This document shows, piece by piece, positions 8,870-36,568 of a DNA stretch of 64,000 bases. Source of the DNA: a bacterium (GTDB lineage: Bacteria > Acidobacteriota > Blastocatellia > HR10); NCBI GenBank assembly GCA_041640655.1, contig JBEPZV010000001.1, positions 154,845 through 218,844 of the forward strand, in the 5' to 3' direction. The notes beneath the pieces are model-generated. The model saw nothing but the letters and a program-made list of their open reading frames with translations, was not told the DNA's origin and made no database searches. Made by a program: the position numbers and the translations under genes. The stretch's first letter is position 1. Every line of letters begins with the position of its first letter.

Positions 8870-8883
8870 GCGGAGGACCGAGC

Positions 8884-11924: not shown

Positions 11925-11947
11925 CGAACGAGAGAGGACGCTCTCGG

Positions 11948-14507: not shown

Positions 14508-14552
14508 ACATCGTTCGGGCAACCCCGCGGGGGATCCCTGAAGGAGTCGAGG

Positions 14553-15404: not shown

Positions 15405-15424
15405 GCTGAGAGGAGGACGTCCTC

Positions 15425-16420
15425 ATGCGCACCGTGATGGTTCTCCTGCCGACATCCCGCATCGAGCGGGCCGAGCGCGAGGCCATCGGCGCCGCGCGCG
15501 CGTTGTCGCGGGAATGGTCGGCGAACGTGCAGGTGGCCCTCATCGCCCCAACGGCGGAGGGAATCGAAGGCCTCCGAGGGAGGACGGAGGCCTCTGGAGA
15601 TGTGCGCCTGTGGATCGCCGCCCATCCGCAGCTGGCGGCGTATTCGCCCGAGCTGTATGTGAGCGCCAGCGAACAGCTCATCACACGCGCGCGACCGGAC
15701 GTGATTGTCTTCCCCAGTCGGACGATCCCGCTTGAGATCGCGCCGCGTCTCGCATACCGGATCGGGGCGGCGATGGCGACCGATGTCATCGAGCTGCGCG
15801 CCGAGGATGAGACCGTCCGCATCACGAAGCCCGTCTACGGCGGCAAGGCGCACGCGGTGTTGATGGCGCAACGGTTCCCCCTCGTCCTCTGCGTGCGCCC
15901 GCGCGCGTTCGATCCGTTTGAGGGGGAGCTGCGCGACGATGCGGCGATGCGCGTCCAGGTGACGCTCGATCCCTCGTCCGTCCGCACGCAGCTCGTCCGA
16001 CGGATTCAAGAGGACGCCGCGGCGGGAGTGTCGCTCGAAGAGGCGCGCGTCATCGTCAGCGGCGGGCGCGGCCTCGGCGGACCCGAGGGCTTCCGATTGC
16101 TCGAAGAATTGGCGCGGTGGCTCGGCGGCGCCGTCGGCGCTTCGCGCGCGGCGTGCGACGCCGGGTGGGTGCCGGCCAGCTGGCAAATCGGGCAAACGGG
16201 AAAGAAGGTCGCCCCCGATCTCTATATCGCCGTCGGGATCTCCGGAGCCAGCCAGCACATCGTCGGCATCTCCGGGGCCAAGTGCATCGTCGCCATCAAC
16301 ACGGACCCCAAAGCGCCGATCTTCACAGTGGCGGATCTCGGGATCGTCGGCGATTATCGAGCGGTCGTCCCCGCTCTGATCGCGGAGGTCAAACGGATGC
16401 GTGAGGAAGCAGAGGGATGA
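15425..16420 (+). CDS. etfA: electron transfer flavoprotein alpha subunit
   Basis: EtfA FAD-binding C-terminal motifs ([22 protein letters not shown]). Confidence 0.85.
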
Positions 16421-16458
16421 ACGCTTGAACGCGACGAGACCTTCTGGGAGGACGCGAC

Positions 16459-17256
16459 ATGAGTGAGCCGACGGTGCAGCTTGTCGTGGACGATGGCGTG
16501 GCCACGGTGACGCTCAACCGGCCCGAGGCGTTGAACGCTATTGACGCGACGTTGGCGGCCGAGTTGCGCGAGGTCTTTCGAACGTTGGGAGCGCGAGAGG
16601 ATGTTCGGGCCGTGATCCTGACGGGAGCGGGACGGGCGTTCTCGGCGGGTGCGGATTTGAAGTACCTTCACCGGAGATTGGAGGAGGGCGCTTCGGCCGA
16701 ACAGTTGCTGGACGAGTTGCTCGGGCCGTTGAACGATACAATTCGACTCATTCGGGGCATGCCGAAGATCATCATCGCGGCCATTCACGGGGTCGCCAGC
16801 GGTGGCGGCTGTAACCTCGCGCTGGCGTGCGATTATCGGGTGGCGGCTGTGGGGACGCGGTTCAACCAGGCGTTCGTGCGACTCGGGATCGCTCCGGATT
16901 GCGGAGGGACGTTCATTGTGCCGCGCCTGATCGGCTGGACGAAGGCGTTCGAATGGATGGTGAGTGGAGCGTTGATCGAGGCTGAGGAGGCGGCCGCCTG
17001 GGGACTCGTGCATCGCGTCGTCCCCGAGGATCGCGTGCTCGAAGAGGCGCGCGCCTTCGCGCGCTCCGTGTGCGAAGGGCCGACACGAGCGATCGTGACC
17101 ATCAAACACTTGCTCGCGATGAGCCTCGGAGCCTCCCTGGATGAGCAGCTGGAGCGGGAGCGGCAGCTCGTGGGCTTGCTCGCCGGCACCGAGGATTTCC
17201 GCGAAGGCGTGCGCGCCTTCCTCGAGAAGCGCCCCCCGCGCTTCTCCGGGCGATGA
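16459..17256 (+). CDS. enoyl-CoA hydratase/isomerase (crotonase family)
   Basis: Crotonase motifs (LNRPEALNA, GAGRAFSAGADL, GGGCNLALACD). Confidence 0.85.
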   Translation: MSEPTVQLVVDDGVATVTLNRPEALNAIDATLAAELREVFRTLGAREDVRAVILTGAGRAFSAGADLKYLHRRLEEGASAEQLLDELLGPLNDTIRLIRGMPKIIIAAIHGVASGGGCNLALACDYRVAAVGTRFNQAFVRLGIAPDCGGTFIVPRLIGWTKAFEWMVSGALIEAEEAAAWGLVHRVVPEDRVLEEARAFARSVCEGPTRAIVTIKHLLAMSLGASLDEQLERERQLVGLLAGTEDFREGVRAFLEKRPPRFSGR

Positions 17257-17276: not shown

Positions 17277-17314
17277 GGGGTCCCCACGCGATCCGGAGAT
17301 CGCGTGGGGTGCCC
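17277..17314 (-). repeat. 38-nt palindromic element copy b (intergenic, reverse orientation)
   Basis: GGGGTCCCCACGCGATCCGGAGATCGCGTGGGGTGCCC is the exact reverse complement of copy d; perfect 12-bp arms with a 4-nt spacer. Confidence 0.85.
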
Positions 17315-17335: not shown

Positions 17336-18292
17336 ATGTCGAGCGCATTCGAATTCGTTCCCCCCGGTCTCGATCTCGCCGATGATGACATCCATCCCAT
17401 CGGTCCGGAACCCTGGTGGCGCGAGGCCTGGTACTTCGAATTCTTCGACCCGGCTTCGCGCGTTCAGTTCCAGGTCTATCAAGGCATCTTCCCGAACGCC
17501 GGTCGAGGGGATCTGACCTGCTACGTGTTCGTGGAGGGACGCCTGCGATACGAGCTGATGAAGATGGACTTCGCGATTCCGTCCGACATCGGGCGGGAGC
17601 GCTTGTGCTTCGGCCCCTTGAAATTAGAGATGCTCGAGCCCTTCGTCCGATGGCGCTTGCGCTACGATAGCCCGAGGATGCAGTGCGATCTCTCCTTCCG
17701 CGCGCTCCATCGCGCCTTCAGTTGGGCGGAGACCCGGCTCTGGATGGAAGACGCTCCGGTCGGGCAGCAGAGCCGCCATTTCGATCAGGTGGGATGGTAC
17801 GAGGGATGGCTGCATCTGGATGACGAGCAGCTCTCCATCTCGGCGATCGGGATGCGCGATCGGATGTGGGGGTGGGGAGGGCGCGCTCTCTGGCGCGGGT
17901 ATCTGGTCCTGTGGGCGCCCTTCTCCGAAGCCTTCGTCGTCAATGTGGCGGCCATGAACTTCGCCGACGGTCGACGCCACCTCTGCGGATATCTCCATCG
18001 CGAGGGCGAACGCACCTATCTCGACTCCGCGCGCCTGACCATCACCTGGAGCGAGCAGCGATGGAAGTCGGTCGAACGTGTGCACGCGCAGCTCACCGAT
18101 CGGCGCGGGCGGTCGCTCGCGCTCTCGGCCCGACCGCTCGGCATCATTGATACATCGCATCATTGGCCGCACCGATTCGATCACCTCCTCTTCTCCATCG
18201 GCGAATATGAGTGCCAGGGGATGACCGGCTACGGATGCCTGACGTGGAGCTTCGTCACGGCGGAGGAGAAGATGCGCGCCATCGAGTTCTGA
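17336..18292 (+). CDS. hypothetical protein, possibly CrtC/AttH-like (lipocalin-like hydratase family)
   Basis: ATG 17336 after GGAGG; Trp-rich N-terminal motif PEPWWREAWYFEFFD resembles the EWWY signature of CrtC/AttH family proteins. Weak by-eye assignment. Confidence 0.35.
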   Translation: MSSAFEFVPPGLDLADDDIHPIGPEPWWREAWYFEFFDPASRVQFQVYQGIFPNAGRGDLTCYVFVEGRLRYELMKMDFAIPSDIGRERLCFGPLKLEMLEPFVRWRLRYDSPRMQCDLSFRALHRAFSWAETRLWMEDAPVGQQSRHFDQVGWYEGWLHLDDEQLSISAIGMRDRMWGWGGRALWRGYLVLWAPFSEAFVVNVAAMNFADGRRHLCGYLHREGERTYLDSARLTITWSEQRWKSVERVHAQLTDRRGRSLALSARPLGIIDTSHHWPHRFDHLLFSIGEYECQGMTGYGCLTWSFVTAEEKMRAIEF

Positions 18293-18316: not shown

Positions 18317-19528
18317 ATGAAGTCGACCGACCTCACCGGGATCCTCCCGCGATCTCTCGATCGCGTGGCGTGCCTGAACGCGCTGCTCCATCGGTTCGGG
18401 GAGAGCGTCCGTCACTTCTTCCGCGCCGAGCAACGCTCGCACCTGTTCTCCCCCCTCTTTCATCTCCCCGGGCGATTGATCGCGGGGAGCTATTGCTACT
18501 ACGAGCACCTGGTGCCCTTGTTGCGACAGGTGGCGCGACAGATGCCGCCGGAAGCCCTCGCGCATCGGGTGAAGCGACTCGGGGCGCGACCCAACGAGAT
18601 CAACGCCAATTCTCTGCTGCTCGGGTATCTGAACGGGCGGGAGCAGCGGCGGCTGCTCGGCCATCGCGTGGCAGATGATCCGGAGGAGATCGCCTTCCTC
18701 CTGGACTTCTGGGCGCGCTTCCTCGCCGCCTATCGCGCCGATGGTCGGCTCTTGCCGGAGGAGAGCGGATTCGTTCTGCCGGTGCTCGAAGCGCGAGCGC
18801 TCGAAGTGCTCCTGCCGGAACTCCATCCGGAACCGGAGCACGCACGACGCCAGCGAGGTCCCCATGTGATCGGGAGATCGCGTGGGGTGCCCGAGCGGAT
18901 GCGTCGCGCCCTGGCCACGCTCGAGCTCTTCGCCTTCGTCTTCAACGGCGAGGCGCGCGTCGGCCTCTTTCACCACGGGCCCTATCCCCGACCCGACGGC
19001 ACGTGCGTGCTCGTCAAGGAGCTGGTGGGGTTGCAGGACGATTTCTATTCCTGGGCGGAGGAGTCCGTGCGACTCCCCGTGGCCCATGTGGCCTGCCTCT
19101 TGCTCGTGAAGGACGTCGAAGTGAGAATCGGTTTATTCGGATCGCTCCGGACGGAGCCCCGGGAGTACGCTCAGAACGTCGTGGCCTGTGGCCTCTTCAC
19201 CGCCACGGGGGAAGACGTTCGTCCTCTCACGCTCGAGGAGCTGGAGGAGATCGCCGCGCACGCGGCTGAGGCGCAGATGCGCCTCTATCGCCACTTCCTC
19301 ACATGGGATGATCGGCGTCGCATCGCCTATGGAGCGGAGCTCTACGGGAACCTGCTGCGCGTCTTCGGCGATCAGGCGGGACTCGGGCCGGATTTCCATC
19401 GGGAGATCCGAGAGCGCTTCCGGGAGAGCACGGACCGACATCTACAAGCCATACTCGCTGGCGAGCCTCCGGCCATCCTGCGGCATATCGCGGAGACGGC
19501 GGGAGAGATCTACAGCCCCCTCGCATGA
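18317..19528 (+). CDS. conserved hypothetical protein (paralog P1), carries an in-frame palindromic-element insertion
   Basis: About 400 aa, tandem paralog of 19541..20770 (shared blocks ATLEL.AF, GLF.HGPY, LYGNLL/LYLFAN). Insertion RGPHVIGRSRGVP maps to element copy c. Confidence 0.5.
   Translation: MKSTDLTGILPRSLDRVACLNALLHRFGESVRHFFRAEQRSHLFSPLFHLPGRLIAGSYCYYEHLVPLLRQVARQMPPEALAHRVKRLGARPNEINANSLLLGYLNGREQRRLLGHRVADDPEEIAFLLDFWARFLAAYRADGRLLPEESGFVLPVLEARALEVLLPELHPEPEHARRQRGPHVIGRSRGVPERMRRALATLELFAFVFNGEARVGLFHHGPYPRPDGTCVLVKELVGLQDDFYSWAEESVRLPVAHVACLLLVKDVEVRIGLFGSLRTEPREYAQNVVACGLFTATGEDVRPLTLEELEEIAAHAAEAQMRLYRHFLTWDDRRRIAYGAELYGNLLRVFGDQAGLGPDFHREIRERFRESTDRHLQAILAGEPPAILRHIAETAGEIYSPLA
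18855..18892 (-). repeat. 38-nt palindromic element copy c (inside P1 coding sequence, slightly degenerate)
   Basis: GAGGTCCCCATGTGATCGGGAGATCGCGTGGGGTGCCC; left arm carries 2 substitutions. Confidence 0.8.
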
Positions 19529-19540: not shown

Positions 19541-20770
19541 ATGAGGCGCATGACCCTCGAGGAGATCAATCGCCACATCCGGCTGATCGCGGAACAGCTG
19601 AAGGCGTTCATGCGCTCGGAGCAACGCGCGCTCCTGCGATCGGCGCTTTTTGACGTCCCCCGCCGCTCCTCGCTCGGATGGGAATGCCTCTACCGCACGG
19701 CCTATCCGCTGCTGGCGGACCTCACGTCGGTCGTCACGCCTGAGGAGATCGGACGCCGGATGAAGCGCGTGTGCGCGCGCCCGAATTTCCTCACGCTGAG
19801 CATTCTGATCTGCTGCTACCTCGGGGGACGCCAGCAGCGGATCCTCGATCTCGGCGTGCGACCGGGAGAGCCCTTCCCCGAGGATGATCCCGAGCAGATC
19901 GGCTTCGTCCTCGACTTCTGGTGGCGCGTCTGCCGCACCTATCGCGAGGATGGTGCCCTCTTGCCGGAAGAGCGAGGAGGGACGATGCCGATCCTGCCGG
20001 CCGGAACGATCGCTCGACTCCGCGCGCTGCTGGTCGAGACGGATCCGCTCACGGTGAAACGCCTTCGTCGTCTGGCGGCGACGCTGGAGCTGTACGCGTT
20101 CATCCTGCACGGGGAGCAACGCGATGGCCTCTTCGCGCACGGCCCGTACGCGCTGCAGGAGCGGGCGGGCACCCCACGCGATCTCCGGATCGCGTGGGGA
20201 CCCCGGGAGGTGCTCGTCATTCGCGAGTTCACCGACCTGCAGAACAGTTATCTCCCCTGGGCGCAGACGCGCGCGCGGAACCTCTACCCGAATCTGGCGC
20301 TCGCGCTCCAGCTTCGGGACGTGACGGCTCAGTTCGATCTCTTCGGAGGGGTGCGATTCGATCCCCCGGAATATGCTGATCGCGTTCGCGCCGTCGCGTT
20401 GGTGACCGTGGCCGACAATGGGGAGATCCGAGCCGTCCCTTTCGAGGAGATCGAGGAGATCGAACGCCGCGCGGCCGACGCCCAGATGGAGCTGTATCAA
20501 CGCGCGCTCTGCTGGTCGCCGCGCTTCAAGATCGAATACGGCCTCTACCTGTTCGCGAACCACGTGAAGGCGTTCTTCGATCTGGCGGGGGTGGAGGCGG
20601 GCGAGCGCATTCGTCGGGCGTTCGAAGAGGCCGCCGCTCCGTTCCTGCAGCGGTTGCTCGCCGATGCCGAACCACCATTCATCTGGCGGTTCATGGCGAC
20701 GACAGAAGGCGATTTCTTCTATCCGATCTCCGCGCAGATGCCCGAACGTGAGGGAGGAGAGGGGCGATGA
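19541..20770 (+). CDS. conserved hypothetical protein (paralog P2), carries an in-frame palindromic-element insertion
   Basis: Paralog of P1. Insertion GTPRDLRIAWGPRE (copy d) lies at a site where P1 has no insertion. Confidence 0.5.
   Translation: MRRMTLEEINRHIRLIAEQLKAFMRSEQRALLRSALFDVPRRSSLGWECLYRTAYPLLADLTSVVTPEEIGRRMKRVCARPNFLTLSILICCYLGGRQQRILDLGVRPGEPFPEDDPEQIGFVLDFWWRVCRTYREDGALLPEERGGTMPILPAGTIARLRALLVETDPLTVKRLRRLAATLELYAFILHGEQRDGLFAHGPYALQERAGTPRDLRIAWGPREVLVIREFTDLQNSYLPWAQTRARNLYPNLALALQLRDVTAQFDLFGGVRFDPPEYADRVRAVALVTVADNGEIRAVPFEEIEEIERRAADAQMELYQRALCWSPRFKIEYGLYLFANHVKAFFDLAGVEAGERIRRAFEEAAAPFLQRLLADAEPPFIWRFMATTEGDFFYPISAQMPEREGGEGR
20167..20204 (+). repeat. 38-nt palindromic element copy d (inside P2 coding sequence)
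   Basis: GGGCACCCCACGCGATCTCCGGATCGCGTGGGGACCCC; perfect 12-bp inverted arms. Confidence 0.85.
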
Positions 20771-22923
20771 GAGAGGAGAGCCTCTTGATGGTTCACCAGC
20801 AGGAGCCGCTTGGTCAGAGCGAGCCCGCTCGGGAATACTCCTGCGCTGTGGATACGGGGGGGACGTTCACCGACTGCGTCGTCGGCGATTCGGAGGGGAA
20901 TCTGGTCTTCGCCAAGAGCCCCTCGACGCCGCACGATTTTTCGGCGGGCTTCTTCGCCGCACTCGCCCTGGCGGCGGAGCAGCTTGGGCTCACGCTCACC
21001 GAACTGATGGCGCGCACGCGACGGCTCATGCACGGGACGACGGTGGGCACCAACGCCATGGTGGAGCTCAAAGGGGCGCGCGTGGGGTTGATCACGACGC
21101 GGGGGCATGGGGATGCCATCCTCATCATGCGCTCGGTGGGCCGCTCGGCGGGATTGCCGATCGAGCGGTTGCTGCATGTCTCCCGTCATCAGAAACCCCG
21201 GCCCCTCGTCCCCCGCCACCTCATTCGCGAGGTGAGCGAACGCGTGGACTGGCGCGGCGAGGTCATCGTGCCTCTGAATCGAGAAGAGGCGCGTCGCGCC
21301 ATCGAGGAGTTGCTGGAGCAGAAGGTCGAGGCCATCGCCATCGCCTTCCTCTGGGGATTCGTGAATCCCATCCACGAGCGCGAGGTTCGCCGCATGGTCG
21401 AGGAGATAGCGCCCGACCTCTTCGTCACCTGCGCGCACGAGTTGATCGCGAAGCCGGGCGAGTATGAGCGGACGGCGGCGACCGTGATCAATTGTTTCAT
21501 CGGGCCGAAGACGACGCAGTACATCCGCCGGGTGGAAGAGCGGGCTCGCGCGCTCGGCTGCACGGCTCCCCTCCTCATCATGCAAGCATCAGGTGGCGTC
21601 GCGCCGGCCCGGGAGATCCTGCGCGCGCCGTTGTTCACCATCGGCTCGGGGCCGGCAGGGGGCTTGATGGGATGCCAGTTCCTGGCCGAGACCCTCGGAC
21701 ATCCCCACGTCATCGCCACGGACATGGGGGGGACGAGCTTCGACGTCGGCCTCATCGTGGACGGGATGCCGCTGTCGGCGTCCGAGACCACACTCGAGCA
21801 GTACACCTTCTTCATGCCTCGCTTGGACATCCTCTCCATCGGCGCGGGCGGAGGATCCATCATCTGGATCGATGAGCGGAGCGGAACCCTGAAAGTCGGT
21901 CCGGAATCAGCGGGGGCAGACCCGGGACCCGCCTGCTACGGACGCGGAGGCACACGACCCACGGTGACCGATGCGGACCTCATCCTCGGCTATTACAATC
22001 CGGAGTTCTTCCTGGGGGGGAGGCTGACGCTCAATCCTGAAGCGGCTCACCACGCGATGCGCACGGTCGCCGACCCCCTCGGGTTGGACATCACCGAGGC
22101 GGCCGACGGAGCCACGCGGATCGTTGAGATGCAGATGGCCGATCTCATCCGGCAGATGACCATCCAGCGGGGATACGATCCGCGCGATTTCGTCATCTAC
22201 GCCTACGGCGGAGCCGCCGGCGCCCATGCGGCTGTCTACGCGCGGGAGTTGGGATGCCGCACGGTCGTCATCCCGCGCGGAGTCCTGGCCGCCACCTGGT
22301 CGGCCTTCGGGATCCTCTCGACGGATGTCCAGCACGTCTTCGAGAGATCGGAGCTGCTCATCGCACCCCTGGATGCGACGCGCGTCACGGAGATCTTCCT
22401 CGAGCTGGAAGAGCGAGCCCGCCGACAATTGTGCGAGGAGGGGGTGGCCGAGGATCAGATCCTCCTGCGCCGCTTCGCGGAGATGAAGTTCCGACTGCAG
22501 ATCCATCGCGTCGAGATCCCCGTCCCCGGTGGGATTCTGACCGATCAGGACATGCGCGATCTGGAGCAGGCATTCGTACAAAAGTACGAGACGCTCTATG
22601 GACGCGGATCGGCATTCACGGCGGCGGGCATGGAGATCGGCCTGCTGCGCGTGGTGGCGCTCGGGCGCATCGCTCGCGGGCCGTTGAAGCAGCTCTCCAC
22701 CGAGCACCGCAGCGGATGGACGCCCGTCGGACGGCGCCAGGTCTACTGGCGGGAACTCGGACGACGGATTCAAACGCCCATCTTCTCCGGGGAAGGGATC
22801 CCCCCTGAGACATCTCTGGAGGGTCCGGCGATCGTCGAACTGCCCGTGACGACCATCGTCGTCCGCCCGGGCGACCGCCTCACCACCGATGCATATGGGA
22901 ATTTCATCCTCACCCTCCCCTGA
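20767..22923 (+). CDS. hydantoinase A / acetone-carboxylase beta-like subunit (HyuA family)
   Basis: 718 aa; N-terminal AVDTGGTFTDCVV and ASKHD-superfamily ATPase motifs of hydantoinase A/oxoprolinase. Confidence 0.8.
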   Translation: MREESLLMVHQQEPLGQSEPAREYSCAVDTGGTFTDCVVGDSEGNLVFAKSPSTPHDFSAGFFAALALAAEQLGLTLTELMARTRRLMHGTTVGTNAMVELKGARVGLITTRGHGDAILIMRSVGRSAGLPIERLLHVSRHQKPRPLVPRHLIREVSERVDWRGEVIVPLNREEARRAIEELLEQKVEAIAIAFLWGFVNPIHEREVRRMVEEIAPDLFVTCAHELIAKPGEYERTAATVINCFIGPKTTQYIRRVEERARALGCTAPLLIMQASGGVAPAREILRAPLFTIGSGPAGGLMGCQFLAETLGHPHVIATDMGGTSFDVGLIVDGMPLSASETTLEQYTFFMPRLDILSIGAGGGSIIWIDERSGTLKVGPESAGADPGPACYGRGGTRPTVTDADLILGYYNPEFFLGGRLTLNPEAAHHAMRTVADPLGLDITEAADGATRIVEMQMADLIRQMTIQRGYDPRDFVIYAYGGAAGAHAAVYARELGCRTVVIPRGVLAATWSAFGILSTDVQHVFERSELLIAPLDATRVTEIFLELEERARRQLCEEGVAEDQILLRRFAEMKFRLQIHRVEIPVPGGILTDQDMRDLEQAFVQKYETLYGRGSAFTAAGMEIGLLRVVALGRIARGPLKQLSTEHRSGWTPVGRRQVYWRELGRRIQTPIFSGEGIPPETSLEGPAIVELPVTTIVVRPGDRLTTDAYGNFILTLP

Positions 22924-22955: not shown

Positions 22956-25220
22956 ATGTCATCCATCGCGTGGGACGGCCGGCAATACCCCTACGTCTAT
23001 GGCCGAGAGCTGAAGATCGCTCCCGGCCTGAAACTCCACACGGAGGCGGTCGAGCGTATAGACCCGATCACCTACGAGGTCATCCGCCACGCCCTCTGGA
23101 ATATCAACGTCGAACACGGGCTGACCATCATGAAGATCTCCGGCTCCCCCATCTGCGCCTACGGGCATGACTTCAATCCCTGCCTCCTTGACGAGAAGGG
23201 GGATTTCGTCTTCTTCGGCCCGTTCCTTCAGTATCTCTCCTCGGCGACCAGCTCGGCGGTGAAGTGGACGCTGGAGTATCGCTCGGAGAATCCGGGGATC
23301 GAGGAGGACGACATCTTCTTGACGAACGATCCGTGGATCGGCGCGACCCATCAATCGGATGTGACGTTGATCGCGCCCGTCTTCTGGGAGGGGGAGCTGT
23401 TCTGCTGGGTGGGGAATACGCTGCACCAGTGGGATTTAGGGGGGACATCGCCCGGAGGGTTCAATCCCATGGCCCCCGATGTCTATTGGGAGGCCGGATG
23501 CATCCCCCCGATCAAGATCGTCGAACGCGGACGCTTGCGGCGCGATCTGGAGGAAGAGTACATCCGCCGGTCGCGAATGCCGGAACTGGTGGCCCTGGAT
23601 CTGCGCGCGGAGATCGCCGGCTGCCACGTCGCCCGCGAGCGCATCAAACAGTTGCTCGCGCGATACGGAGCCGCGACCGTCAAGGGCGTCATGCGCAAGC
23701 TTCAGGAGGATTCGGAGCGCGCCTTCGTGCGACGCTTGGCGACCATCCCCGATGGGACGTGGCGCGAGGTCGGATGGGTGGAGTGGGCGCACCCGGGCGA
23801 TCGGCGCGTGTACCGGAATTGCCTGACGCTCACCAAGCGCGGCGATCAGTTGATCTTCTCCAACGAGGGGACTGACCCACAAGCCGGCACGCTCAATTGC
23901 ACGCTCGTCGCCTGGAGGGGGGCCATCATGGCCATGGTCTCGGCGCAACTGCTCTTCGATCAGATGTTCGTCGTCGAAGGCGCCTATCGGCATGTCCAGT
24001 TCCAGGTGCAGCCGGGGACGCTCACGTGCGCGCTCTTTCCGGCCGCGGTGAGCGCTGCCCCCGCGCTCACGCTCCTTCAGACGATCGCCCTCTCGGGACT
24101 CGTGATCTCCAAGATGCTCGCCTGTTCGGACGATCCCGAGTTGCGGATGGAAGTCCAAAGCTGCATGGGCGCACCCATGTATCCGATCGCGGCCGTGAGC
24201 GGCCTCAATCAGCGGGGATCGCCCTACGTCTCCTTCCTGCTCGATCCGGTGGGAGCCGCCCTGGCCGGACTCTCCTGGCGAGATGGCGTGGATACGGGCG
24301 GCTGGCCCTGGGATCTGCAAAGCACCATGCCCAATGTCGAGGAGAACGAGTGGTTCTATCCGATCCTCTACCTCTGGCGTCGCGAGCTGCCCGATTCAGG
24401 CGGAGCGGGAATGTTCCGCGGTGGGAACGCCGCCGAATTGGCCTTCCTCCCTCATGGGACGGAACGCATCACGCTCTTCACCGCGACCGGACATTGCGCC
24501 GTCCCGGGACCGGGGCTGTTCGGCGGCTTCCCCACTTCGACGACGCGGTATGCCCTTGTTCGCAACACTCGCGCGCGATCACTCTTGTCCGCCGGACACG
24601 TGCCAGATCGCCTGGAGGTTCTCGGAGGACATGTGGAATATCTCCCGCCCAAGGCCTTCGACATCGTTCAGAATCCCGACGACGTCTTCATCATGTCCTG
24701 GGCCTCAGCGGGCGGCTACGGGGATCCGTTGCGGCGCGATCCTGAGCGCGTGGCCGAGGACTATCGCGAAGGGCGCTTGACCCGGGAGTGGGCGCAACGA
24801 GCCTATGGGGTCGTGCTCGATGAGACCGGAGCTGTCCTCGCGCCGGAGACGGAGCAGCTGCGCCAGCAGATGCGCCGGCATCGTATAGGAGCCGAGCCGA
24901 AGCCGCAAACGGCTCCTGATGAACCCGAGGCGCGCCTCTTGGCTGAAGGTCTGAAACTCGTCGGGGGATGGATCCGCTGCCGGTATTGCGATCATCCCCT
25001 CTCACCCCCGACGGAGAACTATAAGCGCCACTGCCTCCGAAAAAGCCTCTCCATTCAGGACGCGAACCCGCATATCCGCGATCCGAAGCTCTACATCGAA
25101 GAGACTCTGGAGTGGCGCCACTTCTACTGCCCGGGATGCGGCGCGCTCCTTCAGACGGAATTGGCGCGACCTTCGGATCCTCCCCTCTGGGACCTGCAGC
25201 TTGATCTCGGCGCGAAGTGA
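22956..25220 (+). CDS. hydantoinase B / acetone-carboxylase alpha-like subunit (HyuB family) with C-terminal Cys4 motif
   Basis: 754 aa HyuB-like. C-terminal CRYCDHP...CPGCGA resembles Zn-binding motifs of ATP-dependent ketone carboxylases. Confidence 0.8.
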   Translation: MSSIAWDGRQYPYVYGRELKIAPGLKLHTEAVERIDPITYEVIRHALWNINVEHGLTIMKISGSPICAYGHDFNPCLLDEKGDFVFFGPFLQYLSSATSSAVKWTLEYRSENPGIEEDDIFLTNDPWIGATHQSDVTLIAPVFWEGELFCWVGNTLHQWDLGGTSPGGFNPMAPDVYWEAGCIPPIKIVERGRLRRDLEEEYIRRSRMPELVALDLRAEIAGCHVARERIKQLLARYGAATVKGVMRKLQEDSERAFVRRLATIPDGTWREVGWVEWAHPGDRRVYRNCLTLTKRGDQLIFSNEGTDPQAGTLNCTLVAWRGAIMAMVSAQLLFDQMFVVEGAYRHVQFQVQPGTLTCALFPAAVSAAPALTLLQTIALSGLVISKMLACSDDPELRMEVQSCMGAPMYPIAAVSGLNQRGSPYVSFLLDPVGAALAGLSWRDGVDTGGWPWDLQSTMPNVEENEWFYPILYLWRRELPDSGGAGMFRGGNAAELAFLPHGTERITLFTATGHCAVPGPGLFGGFPTSTTRYALVRNTRARSLLSAGHVPDRLEVLGGHVEYLPPKAFDIVQNPDDVFIMSWASAGGYGDPLRRDPERVAEDYREGRLTREWAQRAYGVVLDETGAVLAPETEQLRQQMRRHRIGAEPKPQTAPDEPEARLLAEGLKLVGGWIRCRYCDHPLSPPTENYKRHCLRKSLSIQDANPHIRDPKLYIEETLEWRHFYCPGCGALLQTELARPSDPPLWDLQLDLGAK

Positions 25221-25252
25221 CCGCCCGACCTTCGCCGACAAGGAGACCGACG

Positions 25253-25597
25253 ATGAGGAAAATCGGGGAAGGGGAGCCGACGTCCGGACACGGCGCCGTC
25301 GGCATCTTGCGCAAAGTCGAAACCTTGGAGGACGTCCTGCGGTTGATGGAGATCGATCTCTCGGAGACGATCGTCTTCACTCCCTCGGCCTCGGTGACGG
25401 CCATCACGCCGATCCTTCCCAAGATCCGAGGGCTCATCTGCGCTTCCGGAGGCTTCACGTCGCATCTGGCGATCGTCGCCCGGGAGTTCGATCTGCCGTG
25501 CCTGATGGGAAGCCACCTCGAGGAGGTGAGCGCCCTCGAAGGACGTCGCGTGCGATTCACGGCCCAAGGGGAGATCTTTCTCGAGGACGATGTCTGA
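25253..25597 (+). CDS. PEP-utilizing enzyme mobile (phosphohistidine) domain protein, stand-alone
   Basis: GGFTSHLAIVAREFDLPCL matches the phosphohistidine swivel-domain signature; ATG 25253 after AAGGAGA. Confidence 0.7.
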   Translation: MRKIGEGEPTSGHGAVGILRKVETLEDVLRLMEIDLSETIVFTPSASVTAITPILPKIRGLICASGGFTSHLAIVAREFDLPCLMGSHLEEVSALEGRRVRFTAQGEIFLEDDV

Positions 25598-26468
25598 ACG
25601 GCGCCCGAAGATTTACCTGAATCTGAGCTTCCCCCAATTGGCCGCTCGGTACGCGCATCTTCCCGCCGATGGCGTCGGGCTCTTGCGCGCCGAATTCCTC
25701 GCCCTCTCGCTGGGTGTCCATCCGAAGCAGCTCCTCGCCGAAGGGGGGGCGGAGACCTTCATCCGAGCCTTCGCCGAGGGAGTGATCGAGGTCGCGCGCC
25801 AGTTCTGGCCCCGACCGGTCACCTATCGCGCGCTCGACCTGAAATCGAACGAATATCGCGGCCTGCGCGGAGGCCAGCAGCTCGAGGAGCCGGAAGAGAA
25901 CCCCGCGCTCGGTCTGCGCGGATGCCGCCGCTATCTGGATGATCCGGAGCTCCTCCGCCTCCAAGCGCGCGCCGTACGAAGCGTCCATGAGGCCGGATGG
26001 ACCAACGTGCGCCTGATGCTCCCCTTCGTGCGCACCGTGTCGGAGGTCCTCGCCTGCCGCGAGATCCTTCAGCAGGAGGGGCTCTTCGAGAGAGGTATCC
26101 CCCTCTGGATCATGGTCGAAGTGCCCTCGGTCGTCTTCCTCATCGAACGATTCCTCCCGTTGGTGGACGGCGTCTCCATCGGAACCAACGATCTCACGCA
26201 GCTCATCCTCGGCGTGGATCGAGATAACCCGCGATTGATCCCCCTGTGGGATGAGCGCGACGACGCCATCATGCGCGCTATCGAATGGGTCGCGCGCGCA
26301 TGCCGGGAGAGCGCCCTGGAGTGCTGCGTCTGCGGCGATGCCCCCTCGCGACGCCCGGAGCTGATCCCCCAGCTGCTGCAACTGGGCCTCACGGCCCTCT
26401 CGGTCTCCCCCGAGGCCTTTGAGCGAACGCTTCGAATCGTGCGCGAGAGAGAGCCCGGCTCAGGGTGA
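25590..26468 (+). CDS. PEP-utilizing enzyme C-terminal TIM-barrel (PEP/pyruvate-binding) domain protein, stand-alone
   Basis: PEP-synthase C-terminal domain motifs (GLLRAEFL, SIGTNDLTQ, CGDAPS); no ATP-grasp domain present. Confidence 0.7.
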   Translation: MSERRPKIYLNLSFPQLAARYAHLPADGVGLLRAEFLALSLGVHPKQLLAEGGAETFIRAFAEGVIEVARQFWPRPVTYRALDLKSNEYRGLRGGQQLEEPEENPALGLRGCRRYLDDPELLRLQARAVRSVHEAGWTNVRLMLPFVRTVSEVLACREILQQEGLFERGIPLWIMVEVPSVVFLIERFLPLVDGVSIGTNDLTQLILGVDRDNPRLIPLWDERDDAIMRAIEWVARACRESALECCVCGDAPSRRPELIPQLLQLGLTALSVSPEAFERTLRIVREREPGSG

Positions 26469-27120: not shown

Positions 27121-28371
27121 ATGGCCTTCACCATGAAGGATCTCCACGATTTGATTCGGATCTTGGAGAAGCATCCGGAGTGGCGCACGGAACTGCGGCG
27201 GCTCCTTCTGACCGATCAGCTGCTGGAGCTGCCCGTCATCGTTCGCGAGTTGGCCGAAGCACAGCGACGAACGGAGGAACGCGTGGAGGCGTTGGCCGAG
27301 GCGCAGCGGCGGACGGAAGAACAGGTGCGGGCCTTGACGCAGCAGGTGCAGGCCTTGGCCGAGGCGCAACGGCGGACGGAGGAGCGGGTCAGTCGGGTGG
27401 AGGAAGAGCTGGCCAAGTTGGCCGAAGCGCAACGGCGGACGGAAGAACAGGTGCGGGCCTTGACGCAGCAGGTGCAGGCCTTGGCCGAGGCGCAACAGCG
27501 GACGGAGGAGCGGGTCAGTCGGGTGGAGGAAGAGCTGGCCAAGTTGGCCGAAGCGCAACGGCGGACGGAAGAACAGGTGCGGGCCTTGACGCAGCAGGTG
27601 CAGGCCTTGGCCGAGGCGCAACAGCGGACGGAGGAGCGGGTCAGTCGGGTGGAGGAAGAGCTGGCCAAGTTGGCCGAAGCGCAACGGCGGACGGAAGAAC
27701 AGGTCCGGGCCTTGACCGAGGCGCAGCGACGAACGGAAGAACAGGTGCGAGCCTTGACTGAAGCGCAGCGGCGGACGGAGGAGCAGGTGCAAGCCTTGAC
27801 CGAAGCGCAGCGGCGGATCGAACAGCAAGTCGCCGATCTGGTGGCCGCTCAACAGCGCACCGAGCGCACCTTGCAACGCCTCCTCGAATGGCAACAGGGC
27901 GAAGCGGGACGGCGCGAGGGCGAGCGATACGAGCGGCGCATCGTGGTGCGCGCGCCCAACCTGTTCTTCGGTGGCGAGGGCGGTGCACCCGGGGAGCCGG
28001 ATGTGCGTCGTCAACTCAGCCGGTGGCTTCACCCGTTCTATCGAGAGGGTCGAGCCCCGGATCCCCCCGCCGATCCTCTCCTGGCCGACCTCATTTGGTG
28101 GAAAGGAGAGGAAGTGTTCGTCGTGGAGGTGTCGCAGAAAGTGGACCCTCAGGACATCCACCGCGCCCGTCAACGAGCCGATACCTTGCGCGAAGCGGGC
28201 GTGAACGCCACACCGGCTGTGATCGGCGAGGAGTGGGCGACGCCGGAGTCACAGGCGCTGGCCCAACAGGAATCGGTGGAATGGTTGGTCGGCGGAGGCC
28301 TTTCCCAGGGGTTCCTGCGCTTCCGCCGCCTGTCAGCCGAGACGCTGGAAAATCCCCCACGCGAAGGATGA
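27121..28371 (+). CDS. coiled-coil repeat protein (paralog A) with C-terminal putative PD-(D/E)xK-like domain
   Basis: N-terminal conserved block [22 protein letters not shown], then repeats of AEAQRRTEE(R/Q)V..., C-terminal FVVEVSQK block; ribosome-binding site GGGAGG. Confidence 0.6.
   Translation: MAFTMKDLHDLIRILEKHPEWRTELRRLLLTDQLLELPVIVRELAEAQRRTEERVEALAEAQRRTEEQVRALTQQVQALAEAQRRTEERVSRVEEELAKLAEAQRRTEEQVRALTQQVQALAEAQQRTEERVSRVEEELAKLAEAQRRTEEQVRALTQQVQALAEAQQRTEERVSRVEEELAKLAEAQRRTEEQVRALTEAQRRTEEQVRALTEAQRRTEEQVQALTEAQRRIEQQVADLVAAQQRTERTLQRLLEWQQGEAGRREGERYERRIVVRAPNLFFGGEGGAPGEPDVRRQLSRWLHPFYREGRAPDPPADPLLADLIWWKGEEVFVVEVSQKVDPQDIHRARQRADTLREAGVNATPAVIGEEWATPESQALAQQESVEWLVGGGLSQGFLRFRRLSAETLENPPREG
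27292..27810 (+). repeat. intragenic tandem repeat: 126-nt unit x3 followed by about 42-nt units x3
   Basis: Near-identical nucleotide units gccgaggcgcaacggcggacggaggagcgggtcagtcgggtggaggaagagctggccaagttg... Confidence 0.8.
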
Positions 28372-33330: not shown

Positions 33331-36300
33331 TTACACCTTCACCACGTTCACGCGCGTGTCGTAGAACGAGACGCTGCCGCCGACGGTGTCAACCATGCAC
33401 GTGTTCTTCAAGTAGTCGTCCACGCGCATGGCCGCATTGGCGTGGACGCCCTGAGCGCGACGCTCGTCGCCGGGAATGCGCACACCGTCAATCATGATGT
33501 CGCTTGAGCCGACGGCCCAGTGGCCAAAGCCCAGCGCAAAGCTGACCACTCCAGGACGTATTCCCAGGACCGGTTTGACCGTGCCGATCATCGGCACGCG
33601 CCGTCCGTTCTTCAGATCCCACACCCCATTGGGATTCGTCGCCGAGACGATCTTCACCCGGTCACCGTCTGCCAACCCCATTCGGTACGCGTCCTCAACG
33701 TTCATCAAGACGAAGTTCTCCGGCATCAGATCGAGCAGCCAGTAATCCACCACCGTGCGCGATTTGGTGTGGAAGATCTCGCGGTGCGTGATCAGATGCA
33801 GGGCGAACCCTTCATCCCTGACCTCGCGCCCCAGCGCATCGCGAATGGGCAGGTACACGGCTACGCCCGGCAGGTACTCTCCCGTCATGGCGCTCCTGGT
33901 GGTCGCCACTTTCTCCAGGTAAATGCTGGCCAGCTTGCCGTACTTGGATTTCGCCTGATCGCCGACCCAAGCATCGCTGTAGTTCTCGAAGCGCCCCCCG
34001 CGATTGAGCACGTAGATGACCTTGCGCCACCACCGGGAGCCGACGATCTGCTCCCATCGCGCGGGATCGAAGACCGTTGGCGGCAAGTGCCGCCGGGCTT
34101 TCAGGAACAGCTCGACCTCCTCATCGCTGGCATCCGGCACCGCATCCGTGCCATCGGATTTGTCGCCGAAGGCGATGTTGGCGACCACGCGGAGATGAAA
34201 ATCCTCCGGACGCTTCAAATCTTTCCCCGGCTCGAATCCGTTCGGACCGAATCCCGGCAATCCCATCTTCTCGGCCAGGCCGAGCAACAAGGCTTCCAAC
34301 GAGAGCGGCATCTCCTCGCCGAACACGGTGACGGTTTCCGTGAGCGGTGCGACGACCGGCTGGCGCACCGGCGAAACCTTCTGCGGAATGGAGGGATGCG
34401 AGCCGTGAAATTCCCAGCGCTCCAGGTAGGAGAGGTCGGGGAAGATATAATCGGCGTACATCGAGGTCTCGCCGATGATGATGTCGCTGGCCACGATGAG
34501 GGGAATCTTGTTCGGATCGGCGAGGATCTCGATGTTGGTGTGACCGGCCGGCAGCGCATAGACCGGCGATCCCATGTAGATGAAGAGCGCCTTGATGGGA
34601 TAGGGATAGCCATCACCTGCTGACGGGATGATCTCCTGATAAATGTCGCTCGCAAACGGATACCAGTTGCGCGGTGCCGGATAGCCCGAGAAGAGGGTCG
34701 TCTTCTCGTAATTCACCTCATGCCGGATGATACTGATCCCAAACGGCGTCAGCTTCGCCGGATGCTTGCCCAGGTTGAACGGCTTGCCCGGCGTCGAACC
34801 CATCTGATCATACGTCCCACCGCCATAGATCATGCCGCCTTTCCAATCGAAGTTACCGATGAGCAGGTTGACGGTCATCACCGCCAGCACGTTGTAGAAC
34901 CCGTTGGTGTGCTGTGCGACGCCGCGATGCGGCTCCATGACGGCGCGTTTGCCGTGAGCGGTGAACTCGCGAGCGAGATCAACGATGTCTTGAGCAGCAA
35001 TGCCGCAGATCTGGGCCCACTCCTCAATCGTTCGCGAGGCCGCCGATTCGTAAACGAGTTGCAGCGCGCTCTTGACGCGAATGCCGCCGACCACCGCATC
35101 GACAAAGAGGTCGCCCTCCACCACCGTCTGCTCATCGTCAACCTTGAACGCCCGTGGCTGGCCATTTCGGAGCACGACGAAACTATCGGCGTCGCCCAGT
35201 CCAATTTCATCGGCTCGCAGGAATTTCGAGGGCCGCCCATCGGCCTCGATCTTGACGAGCCAGGACGCATTGGTCCAGGTCGGTTCATTGTCGGCTCTGG
35301 CCGCGCCTCGGTTGGCGTTCTCCAGGAACCTTCGATCATACCGCTCGTTTTCGATGATCCAGCGGATCATGCCCAGGGCGAGAGCCGCTTCCGTGCCCGG
35401 TTTGATCGGCACCCACTTCCAGGCTTTCGCGGCGGTCTTGGAGAAACGGGGATCAACAACGGCGATCTTCAGCCGGTTGTCCACGGCCCCTTTGGTGATC
35501 TTCCCGGCCTTGAACGGCGGGCCGTAGTTGGCTTCCAGCGGGCTCGCGCCGATGTAGATGATGAACTCGGCGTGGGCCGTGTCCGCCATCCAGTAGGCTT
35601 TGCGCCCGCCCGTCCATTTGCCGCCGGTGTACTGATCGCTCATCGCCTTGCCGGTGAAATAGAGCGACCCCTGACACACCGTCGTGTGGCCGTGCGCGTT
35701 GATCGAACCGAAGCTATCGCGGACGAACCGGCTGATGAATTCCGCCCTTCCGGCTTTGAGTCGGCCCCACATGAAGACGAGTTGATTATTCTTCGGGCCG
35801 AGATCGGGATGATCGGGGTCAATCAGCTTGTCCAAGTGCGCGGCGTACTTGGCCTTGAACTCCTCGACGGTCATTTTCTTGTCCCAGATCCGGGCCACAT
35901 CATCGGCCATGGATTTCATCAACGCCGGGTCGCGCACGGCCCACAGCTCCCGCAGTCCGGTGACCACGCGATTCTCTTCACCGGGGACATGGGCGAACAG
36001 CAGGCCGCCGTTGACGATCTCCTCGATGGCTTGTTCAAACGGAATCGTCATCCACTTGTTCTCGCCGCGACGGCCCGCTCGCTTGAGCACTTTGACGACA
36101 CGATACGGATCGTAGTGCGTTTGAATGCCCGCCTGACCTTTGGGGCAGATGTGTCCGTCCACGGTGGCCATGTCCAGCGGCGAGCTGTCATACGCCACAT
36201 GCGGCCACATCGCGCGCGGCCCGTAGGGGCTGCCGTCAATCTTCACCACCACGCCGTCGAGAATCTTGGCTTTGATCTCGCAGCCGGTGTTGCACTGGAG

Positions 36301-36555
36301 GCAAGTGGTGTAGAGGACATTCTCCGCCTTCGCCAGTTCGTACTCCGGTCCCGGAGCCTGCGCCTGAGCCGGCGCGAAGATGTTGTGCATCCATTTCGCT
36401 CGGCTGGCCAGGAGCGCGGAGCCACCGAGCAGGGCCGAGGTTTTCAGCACAGCTCGCCGCGTCGCGCAAAAGGTCGGATCACTGATGTTCTCGCTCGACG
36501 GCGTCGGCGACGAGTTTTGAGAAGCGGTGCTGTCGGTGAGCATTCTCTCTTTCAT
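33331..36555 (-). CDS. molybdopterin oxidoreductase catalytic subunit (PsrA/TtrA/ArrA-type), TAT-exported
   Basis: Twin-arginine signal TRRAVLKTS; 4Fe-4S motif C-x2-C-x3-C (CLQCNTGC); about 1075 aa. Start at MKERML after AAGGAGG. Confidence 0.8.
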   Translation of the reverse strand: MKERMLTDSTASQNSSPTPSSENISDPTFCATRRAVLKTSALLGGSALLASRAKWMHNIFAPAQAQAPGPEYELAKAENVLYTTCLQCNTGCEIKAKILDGVVVKIDGSPYGPRAMWPHVAYDSSPLDMATVDGHICPKGQAGIQTHYDPYRVVKVLKRAGRRGENKWMTIPFEQAIEEIVNGGLLFAHVPGEENRVVTGLRELWAVRDPALMKSMADDVARIWDKKMTVEEFKAKYAAHLDKLIDPDHPDLGPKNNQLVFMWGRLKAGRAEFISRFVRDSFGSINAHGHTTVCQGSLYFTGKAMSDQYTGGKWTGGRKAYWMADTAHAEFIIYIGASPLEANYGPPFKAGKITKGAVDNRLKIAVVDPRFSKTAAKAWKWVPIKPGTEAALALGMIRWIIENERYDRRFLENANRGAARADNEPTWTNASWLVKIEADGRPSKFLRADEIGLGDADSFVVLRNGQPRAFKVDDEQTVVEGDLFVDAVVGGIRVKSALQLVYESAASRTIEEWAQICGIAAQDIVDLAREFTAHGKRAVMEPHRGVAQHTNGFYNVLAVMTVNLLIGNFDWKGGMIYGGGTYDQMGSTPGKPFNLGKHPAKLTPFGISIIRHEVNYEKTTLFSGYPAPRNWYPFASDIYQEIIPSAGDGYPYPIKALFIYMGSPVYALPAGHTNIEILADPNKIPLIVASDIIIGETSMYADYIFPDLSYLERWEFHGSHPSIPQKVSPVRQPVVAPLTETVTVFGEEMPLSLEALLLGLAEKMGLPGFGPNGFEPGKDLKRPEDFHLRVVANIAFGDKSDGTDAVPDASDEEVELFLKARRHLPPTVFDPARWEQIVGSRWWRKVIYVLNRGGRFENYSDAWVGDQAKSKYGKLASIYLEKVATTRSAMTGEYLPGVAVYLPIRDALGREVRDEGFALHLITHREIFHTKSRTVVDYWLLDLMPENFVLMNVEDAYRMGLADGDRVKIVSATNPNGVWDLKNGRRVPMIGTVKPVLGIRPGVVSFALGFGHWAVGSSDIMIDGVRIPGDERRAQGVHANAAMRVDDYLKNTCMVDTVGGSVSFYDTRVNVVKV

Positions 36556-36568
36556 CGTCACCCCCTCC

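Follow-up and report, generated by a model that had tools for sequence, protein, structure and literature searches.

What can a phosphohistidine swivel domain and a phosphoenolpyruvate (PEP)/pyruvate-binding barrel do when they are encoded as two small proteins with no ATP-grasp protein at their side? The question was raised by a 64-kb stretch of DNA from a member of the Acidobacteriota (64,000 nucleotides; the whole stretch is called the window here), in which such a pair of genes lies at 25253 to 26468, directly after genes for a putative ketone carboxylase (HyuA and HyuB). An annotation made earlier from the letters alone, called the sequence-only reading below, took the pair for an accessory of that carboxylase. 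Here, comparison with related loci pointed elsewhere. We infer that the pair forms the donor half of a PEP-dependent phosphotransferase of four proteins whose acceptor is a small molecule. For the core of this proposal, in which a phosphoryl group would pass from PEP to the swivel and on to a small molecule bound by two further proteins of the operon (unkA and unkB), we estimate a probability of about 0.5, given conservation, synteny, and gene fusions.

The swivel and barrel proteins retain the active sites of PEP-utilizing enzymes

The two genes are as follows.

25253 to 25597, + strand: free-standing phosphohistidine swivel domain protein, 114 aa (PF00391)
25590 to 26468, + strand: stand-alone PEP/pyruvate-binding TIM barrel of the PEP synthase (PpsA) type, 292 aa (PF02896)

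As previously claimed, only a swivel and a PEP/pyruvate barrel are encoded, as two small proteins. The sole Pfam match of the first was PF00391, the PEP-utilizer mobile domain (E = 4.7e-12), and that of the second was PF02896, the PEP-binding barrel (E = 7.8e-64). The ATG at 25253 was accepted as the real swivel start because the Shine-Dalgarno sequence AAGGAGA (25240 to 25246) lies 7 nt upstream, orthologues are 112 to 119 aa long, and public gene calls agree. Five public contigs from hot-spring and other metagenomes carry identical genes with equal gene calls, and the nearest named relatives of the genes were from Blastocatellia (Acidobacteriota). Translational coupling had been suggested for the pair and HyuB together; it holds within the pair, where the barrel start overlaps the swivel stop by 8 nt, but not toward HyuB, whose stop at 25220 is followed by a 32-nt spacer and the swivel gene's own Shine-Dalgarno sequence.

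The swivel protein contains GGFTSHLAIVARE, with the catalytic His within GGFTSH, which fits the catalytic-His consensus GGxT(S/C)H of the PEP-utilizer superfamily (PMC12167813). GGxTSH was retained in 42 of the 45 module swivel homologues. In the PDB, the best match of the swivel was the swivel domain of rifampin phosphotransferase (RPH; 5fbs), followed by enzyme I of the sugar phosphotransferase system (PTS) and PpsA. The barrel aligned end to end with the PEP synthase structures 9dae (E = 1e-68) and 8a8e (E = 1e-65), and the enzyme I entries 2hwg and 6vbj were also matched in the structure-database searches of the barrel and swivel. Among NCBIfam models, the PpsA C terminus was the best match of the barrel (E = 6e-88), with PTS enzyme I far behind (E = 2e-35), and the barrel was 43 to 51% identical to the C termini of genuine full-length PpsA.

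Twenty barrel positions were checked, namely the 19 that are invariant in the barrel-family alignment and position 250. They include R33, E35, R80, R110, R114, E177, N200, D201, R211, and C248 and cover the catalytic Cys, the Asn-Asp and Glu metal ligands, and the PEP-binding arginines. At 19 of them the residue was identical in 38 module barrels and the same in 16 genuine PpsA, with the exception of K85, which is R in 3 of the 16. Position 250 (CGD versus CGQ) was the sole consistent difference between the module and PpsA. With the active-site residues intact, the substrate of the barrel is almost certainly PEP/pyruvate, and the two proteins are compatible with PEP-dependent autophosphorylation of the swivel His.

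For the missing ATP-grasp domain, a profile was built from the N-terminal regions of 10 full-length PpsA. It found no PpsA-type ATP-grasp in the six frames of the 64-kb window or of 76 related loci; it does pick up a true PPDK_N gene in locus L163 (described below), i.e., the profile works. The Pfam and NCBIfam annotations of the + strand cluster at 421 to 26468 likewise contained no PF01326, no ATP-grasp, and no aminoglycoside phosphotransferase (APH)-type kinase. The sequence-only reading was thus right that a PpsA-type partner is absent, and PEP is therefore the only evident donor. Its premise that PEP-utilizer domains need a nucleotide-binding domain was too strong. PTS enzyme I consists of exactly a barrel and a swivel, uses PEP as the donor, and has no nucleotide-binding domain.

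The swivel is tied to two proteins without a Pfam match

Related loci were collected from two sides. Seven were retrieved with the barrel (the window's own contigs, L086/087, L088, L089, L090, L091, and L092/L019) and form an independent sample. A metagenome scan with unkB as bait gave 68 further loci; tblastn and iterated hidden Markov models were run over all, and genes in the high-GC loci were called with a crude script. When genome contigs were scanned with the barrel alignment, nearly all hits were full-length PpsA genes from DPANN archaea and Chloroflexota, and L019 was the sole module member. Two long barrel homologues with PF00391 and PF02896 (P0106 and P0114) were set aside, as they resemble truncated low-GC PpsA fragments and not the module.

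All seven barrel-retrieved loci contained HyuA, a HyuB-Acetone_carb_G fusion, one or two DUF7065/DUF7064 proteins, two unknown proteins of ~390 aa, a swivel, and a barrel, in an order that was shuffled between lineages. In the window, the two unknowns are as follows.

18317 to 19528, + strand: unkA, first paralogue, proposed acceptor/substrate-binding subunit (start taken from the public call on an identical contig)
19550 to 20770, + strand: unkB, second paralogue, 406 aa, proposed acceptor/substrate-binding subunit

The two are 40% identical, belong to one ~390-aa class, and are adjacent in nearly all loci. Their family comprises ~210 to 320 sequence clusters (318 at E ≤ 1e-3 in a library of 1.8 billion proteins), and neither protein had a Pfam or NCBIfam match. 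In the AlphaFold2 (AF2) model of unkB (pLDDT 91.6, pTM 0.91), a beta-sheet is surrounded by N- and C-terminal parts that are helical. Foldseek gave no PDB match better than E = 0.39, RPH included, a profile search of PDB sequences gave none, and hhalign against the PpsA ATP-grasp profile returned a probability of 0.1%. As unkB has neither fold nor profile similarity to ATP-grasp, it is not the missing nucleotide-binding domain; the negative Pfam/NCBIfam, PDB sequence, Foldseek, and hhalign results together ruled out unkA/unkB in that role. We propose that unkAB represents a new fold, as judged by Foldseek against the PDB only. The residues invariant in both paralogues are Arg-rich and include the motif HGEQRDGxFxHGPY, which would suit an anion/phosphate site but proves nothing.

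The genes unkA, unkB, swivel, and barrel were contiguous in ~33 distinct loci, in the order unkA-unkB-His-TIM or His-TIM-unkA-unkB, often with overlapping stops and starts, and the pair always adjoined unkA-unkB. Natural fusions follow the same line. P0221 is an unkA-unkB fusion and therefore argues for a heterodimer. In P0388 (516 aa), an unk domain follows an N-terminal swivel domain whose T-R-S-H motif is intact, and the swivel-unk fusion P0429 (575 aa, locus L163) is built alike. Known enzymes such as HpeH, Thauera PpsA, and RPH likewise have the swivel fused to a substrate-binding domain (PMC12167813), an architecture that P0388 and P0429 match. No swivel fusion to HyuA or HyuB was seen among the natural fusions found.

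HyuAB was present in ~23 of the ~33 contiguous loci, among them all those with a barrel identity of 55% or more to that of the window. Co-occurrence with the carboxylase is thus strong within the module's own clade, in line with the sequence-only reading, but HyuAB is not an invariant partner. In locus L148, unkA, unkB, swivel, and barrel are accompanied by two lyase homologues, and HyuAB is absent within 10 kb. A sister clade (L164, L165, L127, L132, L141, L142, and L149) has the order swivel-barrel-unkA-unkB, and neither HyuAB nor a DUF7064/65 gene was seen within the sequence available for these loci. The barrels of L164 and L165 are 52 to 53% identical to that of the window; after unkB, these loci have two NDP-forming acyl-CoA-synthetase-like genes and MaoC-type hydratases, together with a divergent PaaK-like ligase, an Amidohydro_2 gene, and CoA-transferase genes. 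The shorter sister-clade loci showed parts of this context. In the divergent loci L121, L124, L154, and L136, only a swivel gene adjoining a single unk was found, along with luciferase-like oxidoreductases and CoA ligases.

The tandem NDP-forming acyl-CoA-synthetase-like genes of L164 (9670 to 17369) and L165 (3803 to 11503) stand in the same operon as swivel-barrel-unkA-unkB, and single copies adjoin unk in L092, L125, L142, and L154. Enzymes of this kind are themselves phosphohistidine enzymes, with an ATP-grasp_5 domain; as neighbors, the genes point to a possible carboxylate acceptor. In another clade, an Amidohydro_2 gene occupies the position of the carboxylase.

A distant variant of the system was found in L163 (contig NODE_243 of ERZ11425561, 1 to 12990). 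One operon contains a stand-alone swivel, an unk, the swivel-unk fusion P0429, and a DUF7064/65 homologue, and the opposite genes comprise a swivel-like/unk-like pair, a CoA ligase, a PPDK_N-plus-swivel dikinase, a biotin carboxyl carrier protein, and biotin carboxylase. No barrel was found in L163, and the dikinase stands in its stead; the barrel is therefore an exchangeable donor module. L163 appears to follow the module logic with an ATP donor and a biotin carboxylase. Given this locus, donors (PEP barrel or ATP-grasp) and carboxylases (Hyu or biotin) can be exchanged around a constant swivel-unk core. Swivel-unk is the invariant association, the barrel is the usual third member, and the carboxylase is a clade-specific companion.

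A palindromic element was also observed. Its core is CCACGCGATC-N4-GATCGCGTGG, and six copies were observed in the window, versus 0.02 expected by chance (14741 to 14764, 17284 to 17307, 18345 to 18368, 18862 to 18885, 20174 to 20197, and 60162 to 60185). At least three copies are intragenic (in EtfB, unkA, and unkB); unkA carries two, in frame. The copy in unkB is an in-frame insertion of 42 nt (14 aa) relative to a Blastocatellia orthologue and falls in a low-confidence region of the model (residues ~205 to 222). The element resembles the Rickettsia palindromic elements, which integrate into coding sequences without breaking the reading frame.

A homologue of 25-phosphosteroid lyase suggests phosphorylation followed by elimination

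The gene next to unkA hints at a phosphorylated small molecule.

17336 to 18292, + strand: homologue of 25-phosphosteroid lyase with DUF7065 and DUF7064, Rv3169 family (PF23213/PF23212), proposed phosphate-eliminating lyase

The AF2 model of this protein (pLDDT 93.8) matched three 2026 PDB entries of 25-phosphosteroid lyase best in Foldseek (9g4c, 9fzn, and 9g2i; E = 2e-16, TM 0.69), followed by kievitone hydratase, fungal pericyclases (Fsa2), and AttH, so the fold is shared with hydratases and pericyclases as well as with the lyase. Sequence identity to the lyase was ~17%. A profile of the DUF7065/7064 family matched 9fzn_A at E = 6.7e-12, in an alignment that spans GxRDRxWG. All 48 module homologues, whether of the RDR or the RDH paralogue class, retain the R-D of the RDR motif (homologue residues ~172 to 179). 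Entry 9g4c, with phosphate and product bound, has RNR at this site, and the apo entry among 9fzn and 9g2i has RDR. The RNR form is presumably an inactivating Asp-to-Asn variant, and its presence in the product-bound structure suggests, from the deposited sequences, that the Asp of RDR is catalytic. We propose that the product of 17336 to 18292 eliminates phosphate from a phosphoester. In L148 the lyase homologue adjoins the unk/His/TIM set and in L163 the unk/swivel genes, both without HyuAB.

In Sterolibacterium, 25-phosphosteroid lyase acts after an ATP-dependent 25-hydroxysteroid kinase, and the pair dehydrates a tertiary alcohol (PMC8449060, PMC11061730). The protein studied here also matched the NCBIfam model "Rv3169 family" (E = 4e-22). 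The literature searched contained nothing relevant on the function of DUF7064 or Rv3169, and the homology described here may be the first functional lead for the uncharacterized Rv3169 of Mycobacterium tuberculosis.

The putative ketone carboxylase and the surrounding catabolic cluster

All genes from 421 to 26468 lie on the same strand and form a single catabolic cluster. Those outside the proposed phosphotransferase and lyase are as follows.

20788 to 22923, + strand: HyuA-type ATP-binding subunit (alpha), acetophenone/acetone-carboxylase-like (Hydant_A_N, Hydantoinase_A, Hydant_A_C)
22956 to 25220, + strand: HyuB-type beta subunit with a fused gamma (zinc-ribbon) domain at ~24975 to 25211 (Hydantoinase_B, Acetone_carb_G)
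421 to 17256, + strand: rest of the catabolic cluster (Pfam/NCBIfam annotation)

The sequence-only reading had called a ketone carboxylase here, which proved reasonable, since HyuA is followed by a HyuB with a C-terminal Acetone_carb_G zinc domain. HyuA matched 6yra_A (2e-127) and the alpha subunit of acetophenone carboxylase (Apc; 5l9w_B, 1e-122), and Apc alpha' merely at 6e-57. Both ASKHA phosphate motifs are present (DTGGTFTD and DMGGTSFD), as is the alpha-type fingerprint SERVDWRG (fingerprint as in PMC5214803). HyuB matched Hydantoinase_B (E = 3e-99) and Acetone_carb_G (E = 6e-9); its best PDB match was Apc beta (5l9w_A, 5e-50), and its C-terminal 80 residues matched Apc gamma (5l9w_C) and contain two CxxC pairs (CxxC...CxxC). 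The gamma subunit is restricted to the carboxylase branches of the Hyu family (PMC5214803). Because of the gamma domain and the neighboring genes for 3-oxoacid CoA-transferase, thiolase, an HMG-CoA-synthase-like protein, and beta-oxidation, HyuAB is a plausible ketone carboxylase that makes a 3-oxoacid, and ATP/bicarbonate-dependent ketone carboxylation is a plausible activity of HyuAB-gamma.

The remainder of the cluster starts with a CrtI-like FAD oxidoreductase, CoA-transferases, an OYE/BaiCD-like reductase, TetR, an acyl-CoA dehydrogenase, and a short-chain dehydrogenase/reductase. A glyoxalase-like protein, a PaaK-like ligase, and a 3-oxoacid CoA-transferase follow, and then a fusion of an HMG-CoA-synthase-like protein with a DUF35 OB fold, an SCPx-type thiolase, EtfBA, and an enoyl-CoA hydratase. 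At 11915 to 14507, the HMG-CoA-synthase-like protein is fused to a DUF35/ChsH2 zinc ribbon plus OB fold and is followed by the SCPx-type thiolase. This is a fused form of the archaeal thiolase/HMGCS/DUF35 arrangement, in a bacterial catabolic operon.

Proposed mechanism

In the mechanism that we favor, the barrel would bind PEP and phosphorylate the His of the 114-aa swivel, as the full conservation of the PpsA/enzyme I active sites suggests. The swivel, as a separate polypeptide, would be a diffusible phosphocarrier, not a tethered domain. Judging from synteny and gene fusions, the phosphorylated swivel would dock on the unkA/unkB heterodimer, an Arg-rich pair of proposed new fold that would bind a pathway intermediate, and the phosphoryl group would land on that intermediate. 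In this operon, the homologue of 25-phosphosteroid lyase would then cleave the phosphoester, so that, overall, PEP would drive the dehydration (an elimination) of an alcohol that is unreactive otherwise. To this lyase step we assign a probability somewhat under that of the core. The Apc-like carboxylase is probably not a direct partner of the swivel/barrel pair; it would use a ketone from this catabolic route, and the resulting 3-oxoacid would pass to the products of the upstream CoA-transferase, thiolase, and beta-oxidation genes. The gene content suggests a substrate of the isoprenoid, steroid, or alkyl type.

The transfer potential of PEP is about -62 kJ/mol. That of tertiary phosphoesters is at or slightly above that of ATP, and the steroid kinase is fully reversible, with a Keq of 0.34 (PMC8449060, PMC11061730). 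Since tertiary phosphoesters are as energy-rich as ATP, an ATP-dependent kinase would operate near equilibrium, which suggests a thermodynamic reason for the use of PEP. PEP is a sensible donor because the transfer potential of tertiary alkyl phosphoesters equals or exceeds that of ATP; it would render the phosphorylation of a tertiary alcohol irreversible, and ATP would not.

Taken as a whole, the module may represent a new class of PEP-dependent kinase, with a PpsA-derived barrel, a free swivel carrier, and a new-fold heterodimer, coupled to a lyase for the dehydration of an inert (probably tertiary) alcohol in the catabolism of hydrocarbon-, isoprenoid-, or steroid-like compounds, and with donor and carboxylase interchangeable across lineages. 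This wider claim is tentative and falls short of an even chance.

Several observations weigh against the favored mechanism. unkB was the bait for most loci, so the counts on the unk side are biased and partly circular. Neither unkA nor unkB has a recognized catalytic motif. The transfer may run from PEP to His or from His to pyruvate, and an alcohol, an enol, and a carboxylate are all conceivable acceptors. L121 and L124 hold a swivel and an unk with no barrel nearby. L164 and L165 lack the lyase homologue and have the two acyl-CoA-synthetase-like genes after unkB instead; the lyase step is therefore not general. The strong co-occurrence with HyuAB at the clade level, and the lack of Apc alpha' in this HyuAB, also leave room for a direct link to the carboxylase.

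Alternative explanations

That link is the alternative we took most seriously, though we consider it unlikely. The pair would be a carboxylase accessory, with the swivel exchanging phosphoryl groups directly with HyuAB, in one of two forms that are unlikely even when taken jointly: the phosphate of a phosphoenol-ketone would be salvaged into PEP, as the sequence-only reading had it, or a PEP-derived phosphoryl group would replace the alpha' kinase subunit. Apc uses alpha' as a second kinase subunit to activate its second substrate (PMC5214803), and the enzyme here is Apc-like with a single HyuA and neither alpha' nor epsilon (PMC5214803). HyuAB-gamma occurs in ~23 of ~28 informative loci and wherever the barrel is at least 55% identical, and the action of a phosphohistidine on a ketone enolate is PpsA chemistry on pyruvate. 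Against this, L148, L163, L164, L165, L127, L132, L141, and L142 have the pair or the swivel-unk core but lack HyuAB, fusions tie the swivel to unk and never to Hyu, and the pair stays beside unkAB when gene order is shuffled. HyuA moreover retains both ASKHA ATP motifs, and acetone carboxylase manages with one alpha subunit, so that a single alpha suffices (PMC5214803). The constant partners of the pair are unkA and unkB. Nothing specific spoke for salvage from a phosphoenol-ketone, and a role as salvage accessory to the carboxylase is less well supported than the mechanism favored here.

A regulatory phosphorelay of the PtsP/EI-Ntr kind, in which the PEP/pyruvate ratio would set the phosphorylation of the swivel and thereby switch unkAB or pathway enzymes, appears quite improbable. 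Its barrel-plus-swivel logic is that of enzyme I, and a free-standing swivel recalls phosphocarriers of the HPr kind; yet no HPr-, EIIA-, or GAF-type partner appears in the operon annotation, the presence of a lyase homologue implies that a small molecule is phosphorylated, and L163, the variant with ATP-grasp, has its parallel in small-molecule dikinases like HpeHI (PMC12167813). Slightly less probable still is a split PEP synthase, in which unkAB would charge the swivel His from ATP and the barrel would make PEP for gluconeogenesis on the pathway substrate. The 43 to 51% identity of the barrel to PpsA C termini, with all catalytic residues in common, fits such an enzyme, but unkB has no ATP-grasp similarity in profile or fold, the unk of L163 coexists with a true PPDK_N, so that ATP-grasp replaces the barrel and not unk, and there is no rationale for a pathway-specific PEP synthase tied to a lyase homologue and a carboxylase. 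The pair could also be what is left of a decayed ppsA after loss of its 5' part and a frameshift. Apart from the missing N-terminal domain, nothing favors this, and its probability is close to nil: the division into two genes recurs in more than 30 loci of two or more phyla (Acidobacteriota and Actinomycetota), with conserved lengths (swivels of 112 to 119 aa and barrels of 284 to 307 aa), its own Shine-Dalgarno sequence, a stop/start overlap, and intact active sites. Stand-alone barrels of 284 to 316 aa top the homologue list. Conservation across loci refutes a pseudogene and indicates that the split pair is old and maintained.

Other features of the window

Directly after the operon, 27121 to 28371 encodes a 416-aa protein that consists largely of 63-nt (21-aa) tandem repeats, with weak coiled-coil Pfam matches. 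Farther downstream, at 28900 to 56000, the G+C content falls from ~65% to 49 to 61%. This region contains genes for metals, sulfur compounds, and efflux, namely a Tll0287-like protein, an SaoE-like efflux protein, a TtrA/TtrB-like molybdoenzyme, an RND/HlyD/OEP efflux system, two multicopper oxidases, and a P-type ATPase, as well as an open reading frame whose translation reads like an ArsR-family repressor. It may be an acquired island. The molybdoenzyme (33331 to 37516) was considered as an analogue of steroid-C25-hydroxylase and rejected, its best match being tetrathionate reductase TtrA/TtrB, in an unrelated metal-resistance region.

Significance and comparison with known systems

The component superfamilies and the swivel logic are already known. 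To our knowledge, PEP is hardly known as a donor for small-molecule kinases beyond the sugar PTS and dihydroxyacetone kinase. Nothing relevant to the association of the module genes was found in the literature searched, in which the stand-alone PpsA-type barrel donor, the free swivel, the acceptor of unknown fold, and the coupling to a phosphosteroid-lyase homologue all appear undescribed. To this extent the module appears to be new, as the sequence-only reading had supposed. If the proposal is true, a dedicated barrel with a free swivel would be a new wiring of the PEP-utilizer superfamily, a family of ~300 clusters without a Pfam model or structural relative would gain a function, and DUF7064/DUF7065 (the Rv3169 family, present in M. 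tuberculosis) would gain a first context. The phosphorylate-then-eliminate strategy would then reach past anaerobic steroid degraders to Acidobacteriota and Actinomycetota of soils and hot springs. The module is a compact seven-gene set that should also be of use to enzymologists of ketone carboxylases.

Among known systems, PTS enzyme I (PtsI/PtsP) shares with the module a PEP barrel that autophosphorylates a swivel His without a nucleotide-binding domain and passes the phosphoryl group on, and the barrel also matched NCBIfam PTS_I_fam. Unlike in enzyme I, the N-terminal HPr-binding subdomain PF05524 is absent (the swivel protein carries PF00391 only), the annotated cluster contains no HPr- or EIIA-type genes by the Pfam/NCBIfam scans, barrel and swivel are separate, and the barrel is nearer to PpsA (6e-88 versus 2e-35). 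The proposed phosphoryl acceptor also differs, being a small molecule bound by a protein of new fold and not the His of a protein. In the dihydroxyacetone kinase DhaKLM, a small molecule is phosphorylated with PEP as the ultimate donor via phosphohistidine carriers, which is the likeness; DhaKLM differs in using the general EI/HPr together with DhaM and an ADP cofactor on DhaL, and it has no homology to unkAB and no dedicated barrel. With PpsA and pyruvate phosphate dikinase (PPDK), the module has in common both domain families, the swivel His motif, and a barrel with all catalytic residues retained, but no ATP-grasp was found, the domains are not joined in one polypeptide but split over two genes, and these share a catabolic operon with unkAB and the lyase homologue.

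The two-component small-molecule dikinases (Thauera PpsAB, CreHI, and HpeHI) and RPH likewise use a swivel His as the phosphate shuttle between a donor module and a distinct substrate-binding module. Dikinase components can be separate catabolic proteins beside a carboxylase, as in HpeHI with HpeCBA and phenylphosphate synthase with its carboxylase (PMC12167813). The swivel of the window is most similar to that of RPH, and relatives fuse it to the substrate module. In those enzymes, however, ATP is the donor through an ATP-grasp domain, which was found here only in the distant variant L163, and the substrate module has the RIF-binding fold; here, the donor module is a PEP barrel, and the partner to which the swivel is paired or fused has a fold with no PDB match, RPH included.

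For the carboxylase, the neighboring HyuA and HyuB-gamma supply the alpha, beta, and four-Cys gamma parts of Apc and acetone carboxylase (Acx), with beta and gamma closest to Apc. They differ in having gamma joined to beta and in lacking alpha' and epsilon (there is one HyuA per locus, of the alpha type), and HyuA scores equally against caprolactamase; PEP-utilizer genes are found in no known Apc or Acx operon (PMC5214803 and the literature searched). The precedent for the proposed chemistry is the 25-hydroxysteroid kinase/25-phosphosteroid lyase tandem of Sterolibacterium denitrificans, in which the logic of phosphorylation followed by elimination is documented (PMC8449060, PMC11061730), and whose lyase shares the RD motif with the homologue described here at ~17% identity. 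Its kinase is a single, ATP-dependent protein of the APH type that is encoded away from the lyase, whereas the cluster analyzed here has no APH kinase, and its candidate kinase would be PEP-dependent and built from several subunits.

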